DNA from: a virus
Lineage: Duplodnaviria > Heunggongvirae > Uroviricota > Caudoviricetes
Strand: one strand, 5' to 3'
Length of the DNA stretch: 14,606 bases
Virus record (IMG/VR): IMGVR_UViG_2703718848_000009
Of this stretch, positions 1 to 14,606 are shown piece after piece (position 1 is the first letter of the stretch; every line of letters begins with the position of its first letter). Below the pieces are notes generated by a model. The model ran no database searches. It had not been told where the DNA came from and was given only the letters and a program-made list of their open reading frames with translations. The position numbers were made by a program, and so were the translations under genes.

Positions 1-75
1 CCAAGGTTACAATGGCACAAATGCGGCACAGGAGGAAACGTGGTGTATTTAAATATGGGGTAACTCTTTGATTTT

Positions 76-104
76 AATGGTGCGATAATAGGAACAGAAC
101 ATAC
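76..104 (-). repeat. Degenerate direct repeat of the tRNA-Thr 3' end (distal att-site remnant, left island boundary)
   Basis: AATGGTGC-GATAATAGGAacaGAACaTAC at 76-104 aligns with AATGGTGCCGATAATAGGAgtcGAACcTAC at 14533-14562 (one indel, a few mismatches). Same orientation as the right-hand copy. Confidence 0.45.
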
Positions 105-152
105 TCCACAATCAATTGATTTATAATACATTTAATTCATTCCATTTAACTT

Positions 153-177
153 GATACCCCCAAAGATACCCCCATTT
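153..177. promoter_or_regulatory. Tandem GATACCCCCA motifs just inside the left att repeat (putative integrase arm-type or other protein-binding sites)
   Basis: gatacccccaaagataccccca at 153-176; near-identical tandem at 14410-14430 (atacccccaaaagtaccccca), an inverted copy at 14381-14387, and a single copy at 6469-6477. Confidence 0.35.
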
Positions 178-349: not shown

Positions 350-1129
350 TTATTCATGAAACTCCTTCCAAGTATTAATATATTCTTTAACTGCTTCATT
401 ATCCGAAAATCCTTTTCCACCATCAATAATATATTTTACGTTTTTCCAGTCCATATACACAGACACAATAGCAACTAAATTTACCAGTTTAACTGGTAAC
501 ATATTCATAAAAATATCTAAGTAGTAATCTTGATGTTCTTCAGGGCATTTATCCTTAACAACCTTAAAAACAACATATACACATCGCACCATGGAAAATA
601 TGGCCATAGATGAATCCTCATCAATTTTATTTATGTAATTTTTAACATCCTCAATTTCGCAAGCTCCTTTTTCATCTATTTGTTTCTCAATAAAAGCCCA
701 TATTGCCTCTTCCAATTCACTAACAGCAGCAGATGAGCGGTATTCTTTTCCGTTAATGTTAATAGTAAAACAACTAAACTCCTCTCTTTCTGAAGAGATA
801 AGGTTATAAAAACCGTCTTCAAACCGTTTTAGAAGAACGTCTTTCTCTTGTCTTCTTTCGTCTTTAATTAGTTGCTCGTTTGCTTCTCGTTGAAGTTTCA
901 AGGAATTAATGAGCATAACAATTGTAATGAAGGTCAAGATAGGATTAAGCACACCTCCTACAAAATCCCCGAAAGTGCCCCAATCACCTTTATCATTGGA
1001 AAAACCCATCCATTTGCTAGCATTAAAGATATCTAACGGGCTATCCCAATGATTGAAATGAGAAAAGTAAAAATACCATACAATAGCTATTAATATAAGT
1101 GAAATAACTTTGATTGAGGGCATCTTCAT
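350..1129 (-). CDS. Hypothetical membrane-anchored protein with two N-terminal transmembrane helices and a ~180-aa soluble C-terminal domain; candidate effector of a two-gene cargo system
   Basis: 259-codon ORF. Hydrophobic segments VISLILIAIVWYFYF and FVGGVLNPILTFITIVMLINSL near the N-terminus. ATG at 1129-1127 lies immediately after the TAA of the upstream gene (TAA-ATG juxtaposed). Strongly AT-rich compared with the core of the island. No recognisable catalytic motif. Confidence 0.7.
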   Translation of the reverse strand: MKMPSIKVISLILIAIVWYFYFSHFNHWDSPLDIFNASKWMGFSNDKGDWGTFGDFVGGVLNPILTFITIVMLINSLKLQREANEQLIKDERRQEKDVLLKRFEDGFYNLISSEREEFSCFTININGKEYRSSAAVSELEEAIWAFIEKQIDEKGACEIEDVKNYINKIDEDSSMAIFSMVRCVYVVFKVVKDKCPEEHQDYYLDIFMNMLPVKLVNLVAIVSVYMDWKNVKYIIDGGKGFSDNEAVKEYINTWKEFHE

Positions 1130-1957
1130 TTACAATATTTCTCTAATTATATAAGCCTTGAGCTCTCCAATATGATCGCGCAACTCATAAGCAGAAATGG
1201 TTATAGGTATAAAAGCGTCTTTACCACCTCTGTTATTCCTATCAAGATTCCTTGAAAACTTATTTTTCTGAGACTGCAATACATGTTCCCAATTAAGATG
1301 GTGTCTAAAGGCAATTGAATCTGACTGTCTATCTAATAACAATCGACCAGTTCCTGTTAACATATTAAACCTAGTTATAATAACATTTTCTTCTACTGGT
1401 TGAGCAGATTCATGCTCTACATTGATATTGAAGAGCGTCTGCGTATCCATTTTAGCAACAACTAATTTTTTAGTTGGTGTTCTTCTTCTCAGAAGTACAT
1501 TATATTTTTGTTTCTCAACTGTTTTATGTAAATTCTGTATAGGTTCCTGAATTCTTATCAAAAGTTGTTTTTCAAGCGGTTTAAGACGCTCTACTAAGTC
1601 GATTGCTTTCTGGCTCTTAAGATGGTGAGCTATTCCCATTCCTTTAGAGATGTAATATGACATAACATCAAAAAAAACACCCCTGCCAATTTCATTAAAT
1701 CTTTTTATCTTTTCAGGATCATCAATTCTAAGTTCAAAATTTTGTCCAAACGATCCATCAAATGTATGTTTGAACATATTCCTAAGCCCATGTATAGAGG
1801 TTGATTTTTTGGGGACTGAATCATCTAAAATAGTGCTTGTTGTAATTTGGGTGATGTCAGAAGCTCCAGCAAAAACCTTTATGCCGGAATTCATTTCTAA
1901 TTCTTCAAAATCGTTCTGCCCATGTCCAACCACAACATCCATATCTAAGTTTATCAT
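1130..1957 (-). CDS. Hypothetical cytoplasmic protein (275 aa), first gene of the AT-rich two-gene cargo operon; candidate sensor/partner
   Basis: 275-codon ORF with ATG at 1957 and an AAAGAG Shine-Dalgarno-like element ~7 nt upstream. No predicted TM segments. N-terminal hydrophobic strand plus Gly-rich loop (DVVVGHGQ). Translationally coupled to the downstream membrane protein. No confident family assignment from motif inspection. Confidence 0.7.
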   Translation of the reverse strand: MINLDMDVVVGHGQNDFEELEMNSGIKVFAGASDITQITTSTILDDSVPKKSTSIHGLRNMFKHTFDGSFGQNFELRIDDPEKIKRFNEIGRGVFFDVMSYYISKGMGIAHHLKSQKAIDLVERLKPLEKQLLIRIQEPIQNLHKTVEKQKYNVLLRRRTPTKKLVVAKMDTQTLFNINVEHESAQPVEENVIITRFNMLTGTGRLLLDRQSDSIAFRHHLNWEHVLQSQKNKFSRNLDRNNRGGKDAFIPITISAYELRDHIGELKAYIIREIL

Positions 1958-3521: not shown

Positions 3522-3578
3522 CAATAATTGCAATTATTGCAATTATTGAAATAATACCATCGATAATTGCAATAAATG
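3522..3578. promoter_or_regulatory. Array of AT-rich palindromic repeats (CAATAATTG / CAATTATTG with TTGCAA cores), putative operator upstream of the 55-aa regulator gene
   Basis: CAATAATTG-CAATTATTG-CAATTATTG at 3522-3548 and ATAATTGCAATAAAT at 3564-3578, i.e. TTGCAA cores at ~9-bp spacing, directly upstream of the RBS at 3503-3520. Confidence 0.45.
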
Positions 3579-3780
3579 AAACAAAAAGCATCAATAAACC
3601 AACCTTCGGCACTAAATGCTCTGATTTTTCTGCAAAGGTATGGCAGATGTTGCTGCATGCAAACATAAAGGAAATAGCAGAAGAAACAGCGGGGAGTGAA
3701 AAGGGGAAGTTTTTATAAATACACGATTGTCGCCTCACTGCAGGTTAACAGCCACAAACCCCATGATAATAACTTGTTAA

Positions 3781-4104
3781 TTATTTCATCAGATTTTTCA
3801 TTATTTGCGCGATTGAGTACACAAGCAAAAACTCGGCAGCCGCAAGAGTATAAAAAACATAGATTCGCTTAGCCCACCGACGATGAAAGAACTCCTCAGC
3901 ATGGCCGAATGTTCGAGATACAAGCCATGCACCTACTGCACACAGAGCAGGTGCAATGAGCACAGTTATAAACCAGATTGTGATGCCCATCCCATGCCTA
4001 CTGATAATAGCCATTGGTATTGCAAAAATGAATGTTAGAGCAGCATTAGCTAATAGAATATCTTTTAAAGTATTTTCAATTAGTTTTTCTAGATTATCTT
4101 TCAT
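3781..4104 (-). CDS. Small integral membrane protein (107 aa, about three predicted TM helices)
   Basis: Hydrophobic stretches ALTFIFAIPMAIIS, ITIWFITVLIAPALCAVGAWLV and YVFYTLAAAEFLLVYSIAQI. AT-rich coding sequence. The RBS contains a G7 tract (C7 on the plus strand, 4110-4116). Confidence 0.65.
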   Translation of the reverse strand: MKDNLEKLIENTLKDILLANAALTFIFAIPMAIISRHGMGITIWFITVLIAPALCAVGAWLVSRTFGHAEEFFHRRWAKRIYVFYTLAAAEFLLVYSIAQIMKNLMK

Positions 4105-5445: not shown

Positions 5446-5733
5446 TTACTGACTACAATTGTTCTTTTTTTGGTATTTCCTGAATGCCTCACCATTGGGC
5501 TGATGTAATCCCATCCCGGCATGTGCCCGGCTGATGGTTTCGCGCATCTCCCCGAAATTATCCTGCCTTGCTGGTGGGCGTGCTGCCTTGTGGATACATT
5601 CCGCGCGACGTTTTGCCGCCTGTTCCCGTGCCTTGTCATCATTCGCCAGCATGATGACCTCAGCCCACCGCGCCGCCGCTCTCCGGTACAGACCACGCGC
5701 TTCCAGTGCTTCCGCTTTGCTGTCGTGAATCAT
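5446..5733 (-). CDS. PerC-family transcriptional activator-like protein
   Basis: KAEALEARGLYRRAAARWAEV matches the conserved PerC/Pch core as I recall it. AAGGAG Shine-Dalgarno upstream. Start overlaps the stop of the upstream ProQ-like gene (ATGA). Confidence 0.65.
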   Translation of the reverse strand: MIHDSKAEALEARGLYRRAAARWAEVIMLANDDKAREQAAKRRAECIHKAARPPARQDNFGEMRETISRAHAGMGLHQPNGEAFRKYQKKNNCSQ

Positions 5734-6272
5734 GCGCCTATTGTCTCCTTTGCTGCCCGGCGCTGGCGTTTGCGCTTCTCATTCAGCGCCACCAGCCGCG
5801 TTTCTGCGTCCTGTTGTTCCTGTGGTGTCACCTCGCCGCACGGCTGGCCTTTCAGGTCGTAGCGTACCCCACCAGCCATTAAGGCGCGGTAATAGTGCGG
5901 ACACTGCGCATAAGATGCCAGCGTCGCACGCAATGCCCCTGGCCCGAATGCCAGCCCCCTGACGGCGAGATCCTGCATCAGGTCGTCGAATATCCCCACC
6001 TTAAGCGGCTTCGGTGCTTCCCGGCTGAATAAGTCAGGCCACAACTCAGTGAGGCGGTTAACGCGCCTGCGGTTTTTGCGCTGGCGTTTGGTCATATGCC
6101 GCCACGGTGTCGCCCCTGTGGGCTTTTGCTGCGCTTTCTGGTTACCGGGCATCACTTTATGCGCCGATGTGGTTTTATCCTGCTCCTGCGCCGCCTGCGT
6201 CGTTTTCTGCGGCGTGCCGTAAATGCCTTTCGGTTTTCTGTTAATGGTCAGCTTAGTCATGCTTTGCCCCAT
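5730..6272 (-). CDS. ProQ/FinO-domain RNA-binding protein
   Basis: PKPLKVGIFDDLMQDLAVRG...LRATLASYAQCPHYYRALMAGGVRYDLKGQPCGEVTPQEQQDAETRL parallels the ProQ N-terminal FinO-like domain (recalled as ARPLKIGIFQDL...[35 protein letters not shown]). The true start may be the Met at 6260 rather than 6272. Confidence 0.75.
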   Translation of the reverse strand: MGQSMTKLTINRKPKGIYGTPQKTTQAAQEQDKTTSAHKVMPGNQKAQQKPTGATPWRHMTKRQRKNRRRVNRLTELWPDLFSREAPKPLKVGIFDDLMQDLAVRGLAFGPGALRATLASYAQCPHYYRALMAGGVRYDLKGQPCGEVTPQEQQDAETRLVALNEKRKRQRRAAKETIGA

Positions 6273-6594
6273 CGTTACAACTGTCTACCGATATAATTGT
6301 TTGATTTATTTAATGTTATTAACACATAACAAAAAAACAATCTGCAAACTGTCTACCAACTCTCTACAGTATTAATACATTGATAATTAATGACTTTTAC
6401 TAAATGGTAGACAGTGTAGATAGTTAAAAGAAAAATTTTAAAAATGAACCCATAACTATCTATTTTTAGATACCCCCGTGGTTTAGAAATATAAAATAAA
6501 CTGTCCACCTCTCTACCACATTAAAAATACCTATATAATTCAAAACATTAATTAGTAGATGGTTGGTAGAGGGTTAAGTGTATCTGTCTACCAA
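6273..6594. repeat. Iteron-like CTGTCTACC repeat array in AT-rich DNA, candidate replication origin downstream of the primase gene
   Basis: CTGTCTACC at 6281-6289, 6349-6357 and 6584-6592; inverted GGTAGACAG at 6407-6415; variants CTGTCCACC (6501), TCTCTACC (6510) and GGTAGAG (6565). Flanked by A/T runs. A 20-N gap follows at 6595-6614. Confidence 0.5.
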
Positions 6595-8391
6595 NNNNNN
6601 NNNNNNNNNNNNNNCTGGTAACCATCCATCAGCATCTTTATCTAACAGAACATTTGTGATCGTTCGCCCTTTATCTGGACCTTTAGTACATTTAGCCCGC
6701 TTGTACTCCTTTCCGTACTCAGCCATTGCCCCTGGCATATCTGTACCAAAGCGTGTCAGTGATACCGGTTTTCCCAGACCATGCGCAGACATATAAGCCA
6801 AATAAGCATGATACAGATATCGCCTCGGGCTAAATGGCACTATTTCTGCATTACCTACTATCATTCCCTCACATTTAACCAACGACATCAGATAACCGCA
6901 GAAGTCCACCAGCGAATCACCTTCACGCTTTATCAACAGTGCTTCTTCTGATTTTTGCTGCTCATAAAGTAGTCTTTTCGCTTCGTCCTGGTCGGCAAAT
7001 CGTGTAAGCAAATGGCGAATCACTACTGCCAGTTCCCCTTCTATCTTTTTCGCCAGCATCGGATCGCGTTCGTTCTCTGGTACAACCTCAGAGAAATTAA
7101 ATATTACTCGTCGACGCGAGATCCCCCCACTACGGTCGCTGAATGACATGGCATAATTGTTTACTACCAGCACTACCGCAGGAACGCGCGTGGAATAGGG
7201 CGCTTTGTGTTTCGGATCGATAGCCACCTTGTCACCGCCTGTAATGGCCTTAATCCCAGCACCATCACCTGCGTAGCGGGTCATGTCAGGCATGATAATC
7301 AGAGAATATCCCACCACTAACGCTCGTTCCCTCGCGTCTTCCAGCGCCTTCATGCTCGCCGATACTGTATTGGCCTTACCCGCCAGCATGGTACAAATCT
7401 CCGCCATCACACTTTTACCGCTTCCGCCCGGCCCCGTTACCTCAAGGAATAACTGCCAGTCGTACCGGTTCGCCAGTACCATGAATAATGCCGCCAGTAC
7501 GCGATCCGCTTTACGAGCATTATCCGCCACCGAACGACGCAACCACTTCCAGAAATTCGGCGCATGTGTTGCCAGCGTTTCCCCCTCTTCTGGCGGGCTG
7601 AACGGTAATTCACTGGCATTTAACAACCAGTCATTTTTGTTGTGTTCCCGAAAATTTCCTGTCCTGATATCAAAAACACCGTTACTGAACCCAATAAGAT
7701 TTCTGTCCGCTCCCCCCATAACAGGTAGACTCAATTTCATTGTCTCTACGGCAAATTTAATGGCGTTTTGCGAATAACTAATTTCGGCATCAATAAAAAT
7801 CTTCGCCATAGACCGCTGGAGTTCCTTATCAGATACAGGCTCCCAAACAATTCCGTTGTAATGGTGAACTACATCAGAATCATCATTTATCGCCAGTGCT
7901 CCTCCATAATGTTCAAGTAACACTTCCCCTCTCTGGCTGGCTCCCATCTGATTTAATGCAGGCTTGGGTAGACCACTATTTTTTGTAGCTAATTTCATCA
8001 CTGAAACTTCCCCGTGCTCAGCCTGTTCGCGGATCCGTTGCAGGTAGTCGCGCCAGTTCTCCGGTTCCTGGTCGGTGATACCTTTGTATAATTTCGCCTC
8101 CTGTACGCCAGCCAGCGCCAGCTTTTCAGCGATAGTATTGATCTGGATTGGCTCTATCTCCCCCGCGATATAGACACGCGCAAAACGGCGTTTCTCGTCA
8201 ATAATGCGGATATTCGCCAGGTCTGCCAGTTGCTTTGGCCCCAGGTAAACAGGAGGCACGTTATCGCCGTGTTTTCGTCCTTCACTTTCAATCCAGTGTT
8301 GAGCATGGGCGTAAGCATCCGTCCCGGCAAAAATGATTACCTCAGTGAATTTATCCTTCGGCTGATATTTTAGACTCGGTGCGTTTTTCAC
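6574..8391 (-). CDS. Phage/plasmid primase, P4-family (alpha-like) with SF3-helicase-type P-loop NTPase domain
   Basis: 605-codon ORF. Walker A motif VTGPGGSGKS and a downstream Walker B-like hydrophobic-acidic stretch (LIIMPDM). The C-terminus is interrupted by the N-run at 6595-6614 (X residues in the translation), so the 3' end is uncertain. Confidence 0.85.
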   Translation of the reverse strand: MKNAPSLKYQPKDKFTEVIIFAGTDAYAHAQHWIESEGRKHGDNVPPVYLGPKQLADLANIRIIDEKRRFARVYIAGEIEPIQINTIAEKLALAGVQEAKLYKGITDQEPENWRDYLQRIREQAEHGEVSVMKLATKNSGLPKPALNQMGASQRGEVLLEHYGGALAINDDSDVVHHYNGIVWEPVSDKELQRSMAKIFIDAEISYSQNAIKFAVETMKLSLPVMGGADRNLIGFSNGVFDIRTGNFREHNKNDWLLNASELPFSPPEEGETLATHAPNFWKWLRRSVADNARKADRVLAALFMVLANRYDWQLFLEVTGPGGSGKSVMAEICTMLAGKANTVSASMKALEDARERALVVGYSLIIMPDMTRYAGDGAGIKAITGGDKVAIDPKHKAPYSTRVPAVVLVVNNYAMSFSDRSGGISRRRVIFNFSEVVPENERDPMLAKKIEGELAVVIRHLLTRFADQDEAKRLLYEQQKSEEALLIKREGDSLVDFCGYLMSLVKCEGMIVGNAEIVPFSPRRYLYHAYLAYMSAHGLGKPVSLTRFGTDMPGAMAEYGKEYKRAKCTKGPDKGRTITNVLLDKDADGWLPXXXXXXXLVDRYT

Positions 8392-9467: not shown

Positions 9468-9684
9468 GGTGCACCTCCTGCACATCAGCCATGATAATTT
9501 TTCCGGCCTTATCCAGTGCCTGATCGGCTTTTAGCTGCACAAATGCTAAATAATGGGAGATGCATTCTGATTCTCTGGCTGCGTGTTTATGCGCCACACC
9601 AGCGATAGCAGAAATCTCAATAAGTGAATCCATCAGCGTTTTGATAGCGTCTACCGCTGCATCAGGCCATGTTGCATTACACAT
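9460..9684 (-). CDS. Hypothetical protein (74 aa)
   Basis: ORF with 8-nt overlaps on both sides within the operon. Confidence 0.45.
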   Translation of the reverse strand: MCNATWPDAAVDAIKTLMDSLIEISAIAGVAHKHAARESECISHYLAFVQLKADQALDKAGKIIMADVQEVHHA

Positions 9685-9880: not shown

Positions 9881-10984
9881 AGCTACCTCGATACTCTTGC
9901 TATCGTTGGTGGTTAGACGCCCTGCATGTGTGCCACCACTGCGGGGCGTTGTCGTTTCTGCACCTTGCATCAACAAGGTGTTGAACACCAATTTAAGCCC
10001 AGGTGTTAAACACGTCAAGTGTTGAACACTTATTTTTTTTCCTGCATACTGCATTTGTTTTTTGTAAGGGGTACACAACATGGCGACAAAAGCAGTAAAC
10101 GCAAAATCACAAACAGTTGCGGCAAGGGTTCCGCATGAAGTTATGAACAATGTTGAGGCGGTAAAAATGCCTGGTGAAAGTACAGGGCAGTTTGTAACAG
10201 CAGCATTAAAGCGAGAAGTTGAATACCGCCAGCGCCGCAAGGCCAAAGAACAGGAGTAACCATCACCAGCGCCGTGGTGTGAGGAACTACGGTGCATCGT
10301 TTTACAGGGCTGCGCCATGACCAACAAAGAATCAACCAATACACCATCACCGGCACGGAAAAGACAGCGCAGAAAGATAGCGTACGAGCATGAGTCAAAC
10401 AGATTCGCGCCCTGTGCGTTTATCCTTGAGAAATTCCTTAAAGAGTACAGGCGCACAAAAATGGGGTCGCATACCTGGAAAACATCGCGGCATGGCAATG
10501 TTAAAGAGCAGGAATAGCCCACCAGCAAGCCAGCATATTCACCATAATGACCCTCAGTTAAACATAGAGTCATTGGTGCAAAGCTGACACATTGCCCACC
10601 AGCCGCAAATCTGGCATTGTTGGCGATGCGTTCAAGTATGTAGCTTTCCCACTGGCGGCCCTCTGCGGTCGCCTTTGTTTTATCCAGAACGAAATCAGAC
10701 ATCAGATTGATCAGCACCTGGCGACCTGACAAAATCGCATCAGTCGCGCCACCAGCAAAATTTTTTGCTTTCCGGACAGTGTGACCAACGACATTTTGCA
10801 GCAAAATATTCTGCATTTCTGGCGTGCTGTAGTAACGGTGATCAGCGCCTTCACTCTGTGCGACCACAACGCTATAATCTGCCTCGTAGACAGTAAGCAA
10901 TATGGCGCAGTAGGCTATTCGTTCACAAAGGCGCTCCGGCAACGGGGCGCTTTCTCTTTTTGTAACGGTCAGAGCGTTACACAT
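9677..10984 (-). CDS. Uninterrupted 435-codon ORF; only the N-terminal ~140 residues look protein-like. Probably a real ~140-aa hypothetical protein whose stop is missing or shifted, running on antisense to the RHH gene
   Basis: ATG at 10984 overlaps the stop of the antirepressor-like gene (translational coupling). Residues 1-~140 have ordinary composition; the remainder is Cys/Ser/Thr/Arg-rich and low-complexity and lies opposite the plus-strand RHH gene and operators. Confidence 0.35.
   Translation of the reverse strand: MCNALTVTKRESAPLPERLCERIAYCAILLTVYEADYSVVVAQSEGADHRYYSTPEMQNILLQNVVGHTVRKAKNFAGGATDAILSGRQVLINLMSDFVLDKTKATAEGRQWESYILERIANNARFAAGGQCVSFAPMTLCLTEGHYGEYAGLLVGYSCSLTLPCRDVFQVCDPIFVRLYSLRNFSRINAQGANLFDSCSYAIFLRCLFRAGDGVLVDSLLVMAQPCKTMHRSSSHHGAGDGYSCSLALRRWRYSTSRFNAAVTNCPVLSPGIFTASTLFITSCGTLAATVCDFAFTAFVAMLCTPYKKQMQYAGKKISVQHLTCLTPGLKLVFNTLLMQGAETTTPRSGGTHAGRLTTNDSKSIEVAMRNHTTHPQGRDSHNLNKYIWRFIALSTAQPRVIHIEATSEQEARQQSPDGCVMVFAARIRQEVEHV
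9961..10031. promoter_or_regulatory. Cluster of GTGTT-N-AACAC palindromic operators in a divergent promoter region
   Basis: Perfect palindromes GGTGTTGAACACC (9977-9989) and AGTGTTGAACACT (10018-10030), imperfect GGTGTTAAACAC (10002-10013), plus inverted repeat CACCTTG...CAAGGTG (9961-9980). Followed by a T8 tract and the RBS of the plus-strand ribbon-helix-helix gene. Confidence 0.5.
10080..10259 (+). CDS. Ribbon-helix-helix (CopG/Arc-like) transcriptional regulator, 59 aa; not in the supplied ORF track (below its length cut-off)
   Basis: ATG at 10080 with AAGGGG Shine-Dalgarno 7-8 nt upstream; TAA at 10257-10259. Translation MATKAVNAKSQTVAARVPHEVMNNVEAVKMPGESTGQFVTAALKREVEYRQRRKAKEQE shows the classic RHH pattern (beta-strand TVAARVP, helix, G-x-S loop, helix FVTAAL). 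Palindromic operators immediately upstream. Confidence 0.55.
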   Translation: MATKAVNAKSQTVAARVPHEVMNNVEAVKMPGESTGQFVTAALKREVEYRQRRKAKEQE

Positions 10985-11768
10985 GGCTGTTTTCCTCCAT
11001 GCGACGGGCTAACCAACGCTGCGAAAGACGAATTAATTCAGCCTTCCGCTGGTGGTAGTCCTGGCCTAACTCAATCAGCGTGATATTGCTCTGCTCAAGG
11101 TAAGAAAGGTGCTCAAGCTGCAACGTGCTCATGTGGTCGCGTGGTTCGCCTGTAATGCCGTTCGCCAGTGCCCACTGTTTTGCAGTCATGCCACCCAGCA
11201 CGATACGCGCCAGCATGTTCGCTTCCGTGGTGTAGTGGTGCTGGAGTGTGTTTTTACCCAGTTCAGCCCGGTACGCCTCCAGCGCGGCACACATTGGCTT
11301 AAAGTAGCTGGCAACTGTGATACGGGCTTTCAGTTCCCGGCGTAACGCTGCGGAACGAACAGGCGCAACCTTGTGTAGCTCCTCCTCGCATTTGATAAAG
11401 TACTGGCGAACGGCGCGGCCCTGTTCGGTACGTTCGACCATCGCCAGTTCTTTCGCCATGTTCACTGTGATGATGTACTCAAGAGCGGTTTGCTGGCGAG
11501 ATTTTGCGCTCACCGGATCGGGTCGGCTCAAATATTCAACAACCTCATAATCCACGCCTTCCGTGAACCCGTATTCTTCAATGNNCCACGAACGGAAAAC
11601 GCGCCCTACACCTAACGCCTTATGTAACGCTCTGGCGCTAACAATAGTGGTTTCACTCCCGCCAATAACGCCGGAAATAATCGGGATAATTTCGCCGAAA
11701 TTTTGCAGATTCTGGTTTTCAGGCCGAACGAAGCCCCGCCCCTGTACGGGCGTTTTTGGAAATTTCAT
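10977..11768 (-). CDS. Phage-associated protein, possibly antirepressor/Bro-N-like DNA-binding protein (function uncertain)
   Basis: 263-codon ORF directly downstream of alpA. Contains ALHKALGVGRVFRSW, reminiscent of phage antirepressor N-terminal domains. One residue is masked by NN at 11584-11585. Confidence 0.6.
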   Translation of the reverse strand: MKFPKTPVQGRGFVRPENQNLQNFGEIIPIISGVIGGSETTIVSARALHKALGVGRVFRSWXIEEYGFTEGVDYEVVEYLSRPDPVSAKSRQQTALEYIITVNMAKELAMVERTEQGRAVRQYFIKCEEELHKVAPVRSAALRRELKARITVASYFKPMCAALEAYRAELGKNTLQHHYTTEANMLARIVLGGMTAKQWALANGITGEPRDHMSTLQLEHLSYLEQSNITLIELGQDYHQRKAELIRLSQRWLARRMEENSHV

Positions 11769-13163: not shown

Positions 13164-14378
13164 TCACCCGCATTTTCCGAACTCACCATGCACCACATTT
13201 CCGCCATGCTCGAGCGAATCCATATAATCAGCGTACCACTGAAGCATTTCCCGCCGCCCATCCAGATATTGCGCATGGTTGTATGTGCCACGAATTGAGT
13301 TTTTATCGACGTGCGCAAGCTGTGTCTCTATCCACGCGGTGTTATAGCCCTGCTCATGCAAAATGGTGCTCATAGTGTGCCGGAAGCCATGACCAGTAAC
13401 CTTTCCGTTATAGCCGATGCGTTTAAATACTTGGTTTATGCTAGCCTCGCTCATTGTTTTCCTTGGATCATTACGGCCGGGAAACATAAGCGGATAATTG
13501 CCAGTTAGTTCTTTAATCTGCCCAATAAGCGAAAGAGCCTGCTCAGACAAAGGCACTACATGAGGGCGACGCATTTTCATCCGTGAAGCAGGTATCTCCC
13601 AGATAGCCTTGTTGAGATCGATTTCATCCCATAATGCACCGCGCAGTTCGCCAGTCCGCAAACCGGTGATAATCAGTAAACGAGCCGCCATAACAACCAA
13701 TGCACTTCCTGAGTAACTGGACAATGCCTTGAAAAAATCAGGTAATTCTTTGGCTGTGAGGAAAGGATAATGATTAGATTCATGACCTTGCATCGCGCTG
13801 GTGAGATCCGGTGCAGGGTTATACTCAGCACGTCCAGTGACAATTGCATAGCGGAAAACTTCCCCACATCGCTGCCTCACTTTTTTGGCTTTTTCGGTAG
13901 CACCGCGCCCCTCGATGCGCCGCAGCACATTCAGCAGTTCAAGTGGTTTGATTTCGGCGATTGGTTTTTTGCCAATGTAAGGGAACACATCTTTGTTGAA
14001 GGCTTCGAGGATGTCTGAAGCATAACCAGCAGACCATTTTTTTAATTTGCTGCTGTGCCACTCAAGGGCAATATCTTTGAAGGTGTTGTTTAACTGCGTT
14101 TCCCGGGCAATCTTTTCCTCTCGTTTCGCTTCCATCGGATCGATACCCCCAGCGATACCCCTTTTAGCTTCTTCACGTTTTGCACGAGCATCAGCCAAGG
14201 TAACTTCAGGATACACACCTAGTGCTAACAGCTTCTCTTTACCAGCTACACGATACTTGAAGCGCCAATATTTTCCTCCACTAGGTTTTACCAAGAGATA
14301 CAGACCACCACCATCAGCCAGCTTGTAAGCCTTCTCTTTTGGCTTGGCAGTGTCTATTTGACGGGCATTGAGTTTCAC
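13164..14378 (-). CDS. int: Tyrosine recombinase, P4-type integrase
   Basis: 404 aa. N-terminal MKLNARQIDTAKPKEKAYKLADGGGLYLLVKPSGGKYWRFKYR is the typical P4-integrase N-terminus. Catalytic-domain residues R..HxxR..Y are present (GLRTGELRGALW, GHGFRHT, RGTYNHAQY). GTG start with GGAGG Shine-Dalgarno. Adjacent to the tRNA-derived att core. Confidence 0.9.
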   Translation of the reverse strand: MKLNARQIDTAKPKEKAYKLADGGGLYLLVKPSGGKYWRFKYRVAGKEKLLALGVYPEVTLADARAKREEAKRGIAGGIDPMEAKREEKIARETQLNNTFKDIALEWHSSKLKKWSAGYASDILEAFNKDVFPYIGKKPIAEIKPLELLNVLRRIEGRGATEKAKKVRQRCGEVFRYAIVTGRAEYNPAPDLTSAMQGHESNHYPFLTAKELPDFFKALSSYSGSALVVMAARLLIITGLRTGELRGALWDEIDLNKAIWEIPASRMKMRRPHVVPLSEQALSLIGQIKELTGNYPLMFPGRNDPRKTMSEASINQVFKRIGYNGKVTGHGFRHTMSTILHEQGYNTAWIETQLAHVDKNSIRGTYNHAQYLDGRREMLQWYADYMDSLEHGGNVVHGEFGKCG

Positions 14379-14380
14379 TT

Positions 14381-14434
14381 GGGGGTACCTCCACTAAACC
14401 GAACAGCAAATACCCCCAAAAGTACCCCCAATTG
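14381..14434. promoter_or_regulatory. TACCCCC motif cluster between int and att (putative arm-type binding sites), counterpart of 153-177
   Basis: GGGGGTA (inverted) at 14381-14387; atacccccaaaagtaccccca at 14410-14430. Confidence 0.35.
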
Positions 14435-14527: not shown

Positions 14528-14534
14528 TTGGGGA

Positions 14535-14576
14535 GACATTAGAATGGTGCCGATAATAGGAGTCGAACCTACGACC
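14535..14576 (-). other. 3' 42 nt of a tRNA-Thr(CGU) gene (T-arm, acceptor 3' strand, CCA); attachment-site core, not an intact tRNA in this window
   Basis: Reverse complement reads TAATGCGAAGGTCGTAGGTTCGACTCCTATTATCGGCACCA, matching from memory the 3' part of enterobacterial thrW from the anticodon loop onward. The sequence 5' of this (14577-14606) cannot form an anticodon stem or D-arm. Confidence 0.6.
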
Positions 14577-14606
14577 TTCGCATTACCGAAACTCGCGTAA
14601 CCACAT

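Follow-up and report, generated by a model that had tools for sequence, protein, structure and literature searches.

A probable P4-type attachment site with TACCCCC arm repeats at the distal end of an Escherichia coli thrW island

The attachment site of P4 was reportedly described by Pierson and Kahn in 1987, and its core has the same sequence in attP and attB. Six features labelled 'attP arm sequence repeat' and a core of 20 bp are annotated in the GenBank record of P4 (NC_001609/X51522). Integrase (int) genes that are adjacent to a tRNA gene and co-oriented with it are generally autoregulated (PMC2951348). In case of KplE1, the P′ arm sites of the integrase IntS overlap the int promoter and mediate autorepression (PMC2951348). 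A passage of PMC7286903 citing Piazzolla 2006 states that the int promoter of P4 contains an IHF site and is repressed by P4 Int itself.

Here we analysed a stretch of 14,606 nt of DNA (hereafter, the window). The window DNA is that of E. coli: approximately 74 complete E. coli genomes contain at least 80% of it at ≥99% identity, and in the carriers inspected it is located between the paoABCD/LysR-pseudogene side and thrW-proA. [quoted passage not shown]

Junctions and gene content of the thrW element

The preliminary description of this DNA had taken the whole window to be bracketed as one integrative unit, and the unoccupied site bears this out. The empty thrW site of strain ESBL 15 (L002) matches window positions 1–82 and then continues straight into thrW; positions 1–75 are identical to this strain and also to the left flank of ISHS7. 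At the other end, the element reads ...GACATTAGAATGGTG and then passes into the tRNA. Host flank, right end of the element and tRNA have only AATGGTG in common, and both junctions were found within this heptanucleotide and not elsewhere. This precisely delimits a thrW island that is common in E. coli, from 76/82 to 14543/14549 (Table 1). As expected for a P4-type att arrangement, the core occurs as a direct repeat at both ends, it lies at a tRNA 3′ end, and int is located beside the tRNA-side copy.

Nearly all genes of the window are on the minus strand. The distance between the two AATGGTG copies gives a predicted integrative element of 14,467 bp with a PICI-like gene set (int, alpA and a D5-type primase gene). 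As characters of enterobacterial PICIs we took an int gene, alpA and a primase-replication gene next to an origin, all in one orientation, in an element of about 10–15 kb between att repeats. Here we find int, AlpA, a primase with D5_N, DUF5906 and Pox_D5 domains, iterons, a length of 14.5 kb and att repeats. P4-like satellites, defined by the genes int, alpha primase, alpA/vis, sid, psu and delta, differ in this respect: a Pfam scan of 20 ORFs yielded no Psu, Sid or Ogr/Delta domain, which makes the element PICI-like by gene content and not a canonical P4. True P4-like relatives at thrW do carry sid/psu/delta-type genes.

The predicted integrase combines an N-terminal arm-binding domain (Arm-DNA-bind_3, E = 3.6e-29) with a tyrosine-recombinase catalytic domain, and it is homologous to P4 Int, with 62% identity in the N-terminal 95 aa and 38% in the C-terminal part (tblastn). 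The AlpA-family protein is a candidate excision or regulatory factor.

Several further observations concern the interior of the element. The iterons, of the type ACTGTCTACC, lie downstream of the primase gene, whose stop-codon end is at 6574. Among them, a 10-nt inverted repeat (TAGATAGTTA / TAACTATCTA) adjoins a single TACCCCCG at 6471. None of the relatives retrieved for comparison shares these iterons. An intergenic cluster of ATAATTGCAATTATTGCAA-type direct and inverted repeats at 3524–3581 resembles an operator array. The 435-aa ORF at 9677–10984 matches the phage 'transcriptional repressor' family PHROG 6196 with its last ~90 residues only, and in ISHS7 this region is annotated with an Icd-like gene plus small opposite-strand genes; the ORF may have been called too long, or the window and ISHS7 may differ here.

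The AT-rich cargo is indeed located where it had been placed beforehand, next to the distal att site on its inner side, with the P-arm repeats to one side of it and the remainder of the element to the other. The two cargo genes belong to PHROG 8999 and 13337, both function-unassigned families; for both genes there was no Pfam match, and all PADLOC matches were sub-threshold. The same slot contains other cargo in relatives, namely retron St85 plus RipA (52F4), SIR2 (p30EVA2-1) or CbtA/YeeU (NDM3). Because related islands hold such genes there, the two-gene operon is a candidate for a defence pair not yet characterised. The position of the cargo slot is taken by the primase gene in L014 and similar P4-like elements. 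The earlier idea of an accessory slot at this place is plausible. On p30EVA2-1, an IncF conjugative plasmid (L016, 2480–2600), a thrW-downstream-type flank, a core of the kind described below, a TACCCCC pair and the SIR2 gene are found together. This flank is not identical to that of E. coli, and the plasmid seems to have acquired an att-distal cargo module.

Table 1. Coordinates of features in the 14,606-nt window (strand as given in the analysis)
Feature	Position	Strand	Remarks
Host chromosome flank, LysR-pseudogene/paoD side	1–75	.	Equals the sequence downstream of thrW in the unoccupied site
AATGGTG, left copy, inferred crossover (overlap) region, distal att	76–82	+	Empty-site alignment with both junctions
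Element-derived core half CGATAATAGGAACAGAACATAC	83–104	+	Imperfect mimic of thrW positions ~48–71, one C missing
Candidate IHF site CAATCAATTGATT	109–121	+	Matches YAANNNNTTGATW; strict consensus, between core and P-arm pair
P-arm tandem putative arm-type repeats GATACCCCCAAA / GATACCCCCATT, 12-nt period	153–176	+	Exact TACCCCCA at 155 and 167
AT-rich two-gene cargo, 259 and 275 aa, ~33% G+C	350–1957	-	Just inside distal att site
PerC protein	5446–5733		Pfam PerC
ProQ/FinO protein	5730–6272		Pfam ProQ
ACTGTCTACC iterons	6279–6575		At least 8 copies, both orientations
D5-type primase	6574–8391		Pfam D5_N, DUF5906, Pox_D5
AntA-domain protein	10977–11768		Pfam AntA
AlpA-family helix-turn-helix protein, 65 aa	11846–12043	-	Pfam Phage_AlpA, E = 2.4e-19
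P4-family tyrosine integrase, 404 aa, GTG start	13164–14378	-	Pfam Arm-DNA-bind_3 (residues 3–88), Phage_int_M, Phage_integrase
Intragenic repeat pair ATACCCCCAGCG / ATACCCCTTTTA in int	14143–14166	+	Codes KRGIAGGI
Inverted putative arm-type repeat (TACCCCCAA on minus strand)	14379–14387	-	Between GGAGG RBS (14388–14392) and int start codon
P′-arm tandem putative arm-type repeats AATACCCCCAAA / AGTACCCCCAAT, 12-nt period	14409–14432	+	Exact TACCCCCA at 14411 and 14423
AATGGTG, right copy, inferred crossover region, int-proximal att	14543–14549	+	
42-nt thrW fragment, tRNA positions 35–76	14545–14586	-	Not a complete gene
Distal end of second, unrelated island X	14587–14606	.	Between element and intact thrW

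Putative arm-type repeats and their co-variation with the integrase

The sequence TACCCCCA occurs six times in the window (at 155, 167, 14144, 14411 and 14423 on the plus strand and at 14380 on the minus strand), compared to 0.34 copies expected, and none of 200 shuffles reached this number. The 7-mer TACCCCC is present eight times. Since 1.04 copies of it were expected, the strays at 6471 and 9113 correspond to chance. This includes the motif in the iteron region, previously listed as a further site, which is a single TACCCCCG (6471–6478). The tandem motifs at the two ends are as they had been described; an inverted copy (14380–14387) and the pair inside int had escaped that first list. The intragenic pair is unchanged in two int genes that are only 88–89% identical at the DNA level and is mutated in a decayed copy; it may be an extra arm site or reflect a coding constraint.

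The layout of these repeats is that of P4. The P4 inverted repeat TTGGGGGCA (3915–3926) and its counterpart TTGGGGGTA (14379–14387) in the window both abut the MKLNARQ start of int, and the two integrases are homologous and share this start. The P′ tandem pair, in both with a period of 12 nt, lies 30 nt (P4) or 32 nt (window) upstream of the int start and 112 or 113 nt from the core. The second tandem pair lies at 77 and 89 nt beyond the AATGGTG start in P4 and at 78 and 90 nt in the window. Hence, one inverted copy at the int start and one tandem pair per arm are found at distances within 1–2 nt of those in P4. The repeat sequences, (A/G)TGCCCCC in P4 and ATACCCCC in the window, are one base apart. 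By position and sequence, the TACCCCC motifs are thus the positional homologues of the P4 arm repeats.

To place this arrangement among relatives, we used 49 element arms that carry the same core form as the left end of the window (see next section). The tandem pair starts 76–79 nt from ATGGTG in 48 of them, and the 49th has a 13-nt spacing; the sequence between ATGGTG and the pair is not conserved in these arms. Three repeat classes were found: TACCCCC (31 distinct arms plus one TATCCCC variant), TATACACA (13 distinct arms) and TGCCCCC (three distinct arms). For nine elements both ends were available, and in each of them the two arms and the inverted copy at the int start belong to one class (TACCCCC in the window, L021 and L047; TATACACA in L014, L019, L027, L046, L052 and L056), with the limit that many of the compared elements are related and the nine cases are not independent events. 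Position and orientation of the inverted repeat are the same in P4, in the TATACACA-class elements and in one TGCCCCC-class neighbour (L047).

The N-terminus of Int differs accordingly among the classes. It reads MKLNARQ..YKLADGGGLYLL with TACCCCC, MPLNDMQIRRAKPEAKAYTLGDGQGLSLL with TATACACA and MKLNARQVETAKPKDKTYKMADGGGLYLEV in P4, which belongs to the TGCCCCC class. Overall, the integrases of the window and L014 are 66% identical. The N-terminal 95 residues are 55–56% identical across classes and 91–94% within the TACCCCC class, and the repeat classes track this predicted arm-binding domain of Int. Number, orientation and spacing of the motifs reproduce the P4 attP repeats, and the motifs co-vary with the other arm and with Arm-DNA-bind_3, all of which supports the earlier reading of the motifs as putative recombinase arm-type sites.

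The motifs could instead be bound by the element's AlpA/Vis-type helix-turn-helix protein, acting as a directionality factor or regulator, which we consider unlikely. Such a protein is encoded, and its similarity follows the repeat class as well, with 76% identity within the TACCCCC class compared to 39–41% to TATACACA-class elements, so that co-variation alone cannot separate Int from AlpA as the binder. Moreover, the TorI sites of KplE1 are also located in the int-proximal arm (PMC2951348). What speaks against AlpA is the distribution of the repeats on both arms and inverted at the int start, which is the annotated P4 pattern, together with the change of Int's dedicated arm-binding domain from class to class. 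Directionality-factor sites are normally clustered on one arm, as in lambda and KplE1, and this counts against AlpA, too. Because the repeats are present on both arms and P4 provides a precedent, Int is favoured over AlpA as the binder.

With Int as the probable binder, its N-terminal Arm-DNA-bind_3 domain would contact the tandem TACCCCC pairs, one per arm, at P4-like distances. A bend at the IHF-type site between the core and the P-arm pair would then permit Int to bridge arms and core in an intasome. Of 51 distinct arms, 14 have a strict IHF match at the same offset, 32–33 nt away from ATGGTG, and a near, ATTGAT-like match is present in most of the others; the candidate site is compatible with a bending of the DNA that moves the arm towards the core. 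On the int side, the 9 nt that separate the ribosome-binding site of int from its start codon are taken up by the inverted repeat. Int bound at this position would block its own expression, probably an autorepression as in P4 and KplE1. A simple scan of the P′ arm detected no minus-strand sigma-70-like int promoter.

Two further observations were made on the P′ arm. A block (A/C)CGAACAG between the inverted repeat and the tandem pair (CGAACAG at window 14400–14406) is shared by P′ arms of the TACCCCC and TATACACA classes and by the TGCCCCC-class neighbours L026 and L047; P4 has AATCGAAG there. The block may be a promoter element or a protein site. The right end of L017 (12480–12783) combines an MPLTD.. 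Int with a TATACACA-class arm, including the inverted copy at the start codon and the tandem pair, beside a different tRNA 3′ end. This case indicates that the arm class is independent of the core target and that the two can be recombined.

Core copies, predicted crossover and tandem arrangement

The left copy at 76–104 (AATGGTG-CGATAATAGGAACAGAACATAC) matches the 3′ end of thrW (AATGGTGCCGATAATAGGAGTCGAACCTAC) at 25 of 30 positions, with one 1-nt gap and four mismatches. Its local alignment score of 19 exceeds the 12.5 ± 1.2 obtained with 300 dinucleotide-preserving shuffles of the whole window on both strands, among which a single one reached 19. The similarity to the tRNA-Thr 3′ end noted in the preliminary description thereby holds against a shuffled background. 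The right copy, which had been placed at 14533–14562, is located 10 nt further on, at 14543–14572, with the tRNA 3′ end at 14545. The two copies are perfectly identical over the 7 nt of AATGGTG and over 11 nt (CGATAATAGGA), with a 1-nt gap in between.

To the right of AATGGTG, the left copy lacks one C and has divergent bases, and the tRNA-side copy is intact. Exchange must then have taken place within or to the left of AATGGTG, and positions 83–104 must stem from the element. An exact-pattern scan of IMG/VR returned 51 loci with this C-less core, 49 of which are genuine arms. The form ATGGTG-CGATAATAGGAA adjoins all 49 distinct element arms, behind several different host flanks, and different E. 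coli islands behind the same flank each begin with the C-less ATGGTGCGATAATAGGAA. It is preceded by the flank known from E. coli, by one of at least five further sequences that recur and presumably lie downstream of thrW in other hosts, or, in tandem arrays, by the int-proximal end of another element. All these contexts share no more than (A)ATGGTG, and the C-less half always goes with the left arm of the element. That the same form stands beside 49 arms and behind several flanks argues that the left copy is the element's own core half. The copy, which had been called 'degenerate', is imperfect, but it is a conserved, element-encoded core half and not the product of decay.

According to a second alternative, positions 76–104 are the decayed scar of an old integration that became fixed in the chromosome, and the true distal boundary lies elsewhere. 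The five differences to thrW among 30 positions and the occurrence of the same form in many E. coli genomes with different islands would fit such a scar. Yet an identical C-less form is found behind several flanks of non-E. coli type and directly behind the right ends of other elements, and 76–79 nt further on there is always a repeat pair of the class that the int-proximal arm of the element concerned also carries. Furthermore, a second tRNA-core copy that might represent the true boundary was searched for inside the window and none was found, and the empty site has nothing between flank and tRNA. We therefore regard a scar as very improbable. That tRNA similarity and motif clusters arose by chance in AT-rich boundary DNA can be dismissed, the one shuffle in 300 that equalled the alignment score notwithstanding, given the motif shuffles, the position of 76–104 exactly at the host/element junction seen against the empty site, and the conservation of these features in arms of dozens of divergent elements.

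For the element-encoded core half, the comparison supports a crossover region of 6–7 bp at the CACCA end of the tRNA. Int is predicted to insert the element at the thrW 3′ end, with strand exchange confined to (A)ATGGTG, the complement of the CACCA end plus 1–2 nt, these being the only bases that attB and the element have in common. Its catalytic domain would act at AATGGTG and the flanking half-sites. CGATAATAGGAAC..., adjoining the crossover region, would be the element's own core-type Int site and imitates the acceptor and T-stem region of the tRNA imperfectly; the exact cleavage positions at the core are likewise predicted.

Upon excision, the junction of the circle would read ...GGGGAGACATTAGAATGGTGCGATAATAGGAACAGAAC... 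and the repaired site would consist of the host flank followed by AATGGTGCCGATAATAGGAGTCG..., as is the case in WP2-S18-ESBL-07. A precise empty site exists in other strains, and the arrangement with the second island X alone, which equals the predicted excision product, is present in 27 genomes. With the reconstructed attP as query, no excised circle was detected in the phage or plasmid collections; the matches were restricted to P4 int homology and to a chromosomal att fragment on an IncF plasmid beside a SIR2 gene. The attP-like junctions in IMG/VR were considered as proof of excision and set aside, as they rather represent tandem arrays in which the upstream arm is often of another class or decayed.

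The source genome has such a tandem array as well, in the order host flank, element, 42-nt tRNA fragment, X and thrW. ARAGORN found no tRNA gene in the window. The int-proximal tRNA-Thr copy noted before is present, though as a displaced fragment: it is only 42 nt long because the second island is situated between the element and thrW. The match to thrW breaks off at 14586, inside the anticodon (tRNA position 35), and an integrase with the anticodon loop as its target would be expected to leave such an end. Other E. coli genomes contain the X junction with 100% identity, and in 27 genomes the query is covered to at least 80%. The island X that begins at this junction in WP2-S18-ESBL-07 is ~10.7 kb long (L004, 20001–30865); it encodes a TIGR04141 protein, an HNH endonuclease at its far end and, beside thrW, a large tyrosine recombinase (~645 aa). 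Strain YZMc10-2 shows the same order with a true P4-like element in place of the window element (X at L014, 11560–24200). The att sites of the element stay complete in the tandem arrangement. Two other right ends were uninformative for comparison, that of 52F4, where the element is truncated and without int, and that of NDM3, a composite region of >50 kb.

Neighbours in tandem arrays can belong to another repeat class, and in the arrays seen they usually do. The tandem neighbours with intact arms are of different classes (L021, L026, L047), and the tandem neighbour in L037 has lost one repeat. Among same-class neighbours, those with visible P′ arms (L057, L061) have damaged P′ repeats, and at the same-class junction in L027 the neighbour's P′ arm is out of view. 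It is conceivable, if rather doubtful in view of a small sample of tandem junctions whose cases are not independent, that the arm classes TACCCCC, TGCCCCC and TATACACA serve as orthogonal 'address codes' for thrW satellites sharing core and target. Each stacked satellite would then be excised only by its own Int, and neighbours of one class would be stable only if one of the two lost its arm sites.

Comparison with known integration systems

Three natural arm classes and three types of Int N-termini on a shared core provide a ready system to study the arm-site specificity of Arm-DNA-bind_3 domains and to annotate att sites of P4-family islands automatically. The seemingly degenerate tRNA repeat is explained as an element-encoded core half and the crossover narrowed to the CCA end of the tRNA. 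Modestly new are the predicted crossover of 6–7 bp, the three co-varying arm classes and the hint at an avoidance of the same class between tandem neighbours.

In KplE1 (IntS/TorI, inserted at argW), int is adjacent to and co-oriented with the tRNA gene, as it is in the window element (PMC2951348). The P′ arm-type sites of KplE1 overlap the int control region, and IntS represses its own gene; the putative sites of the window likewise overlap the int control region, which by analogy may point to a similar regulation. The arm site of KplE1 is a TAAA-containing motif, unlike TACCCCC, and its TorI sites were mapped experimentally, whereas the sites of the window element are known from sequence.

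The distal thrW fragment of CP4-6 beside intF in K-12 (ptwF-intF, PMC2951348) lies at the same chromosomal position and behind the same host flank as the left end of our element, and it likewise marks the far end of a thrW island region. That fragment is a perfect tRNA copy up to the anticodon region, followed by the divergently placed intF, which encodes another type of integrase, and it has neither the C-less core nor the TACCCCC pair. The pathogenicity islands of E. coli 536 resemble the window element in having P4-like integrases at tRNA genes (PMC7286903). There, IntI represses its own promoter and an IHF site is located upstream of int (PMC7286903), unlike the IHF-consensus match of the window, which is on the int-distal arm. 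These are large pathogenicity islands, and arm repeats are not described for them in PMC7286903.

P4 remains the closest match, with differences in several respects. P4 targets leuX and the window element thrW. The P4 core begins with the same (G)AATGGTGCCGA at the tRNA 3′ end as the core of the window, whose left copy matches the tRNA imperfectly past ATGGTG; the core annotated for P4 is a block of 20 bp. An intragenic repeat is annotated in P4, too, at a position different from that in the window, and the window element, with its PICI-like genes, lacks the sid, psu and delta of P4. Taken together, the feature is of a long-known and ordinary kind, a predicted P4-type att site that uses thrW and whose arm repeat deviates by one base. 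With it, the P4 attP map is extended to relatives that target thrW, and the current understanding of these sites stays in place.
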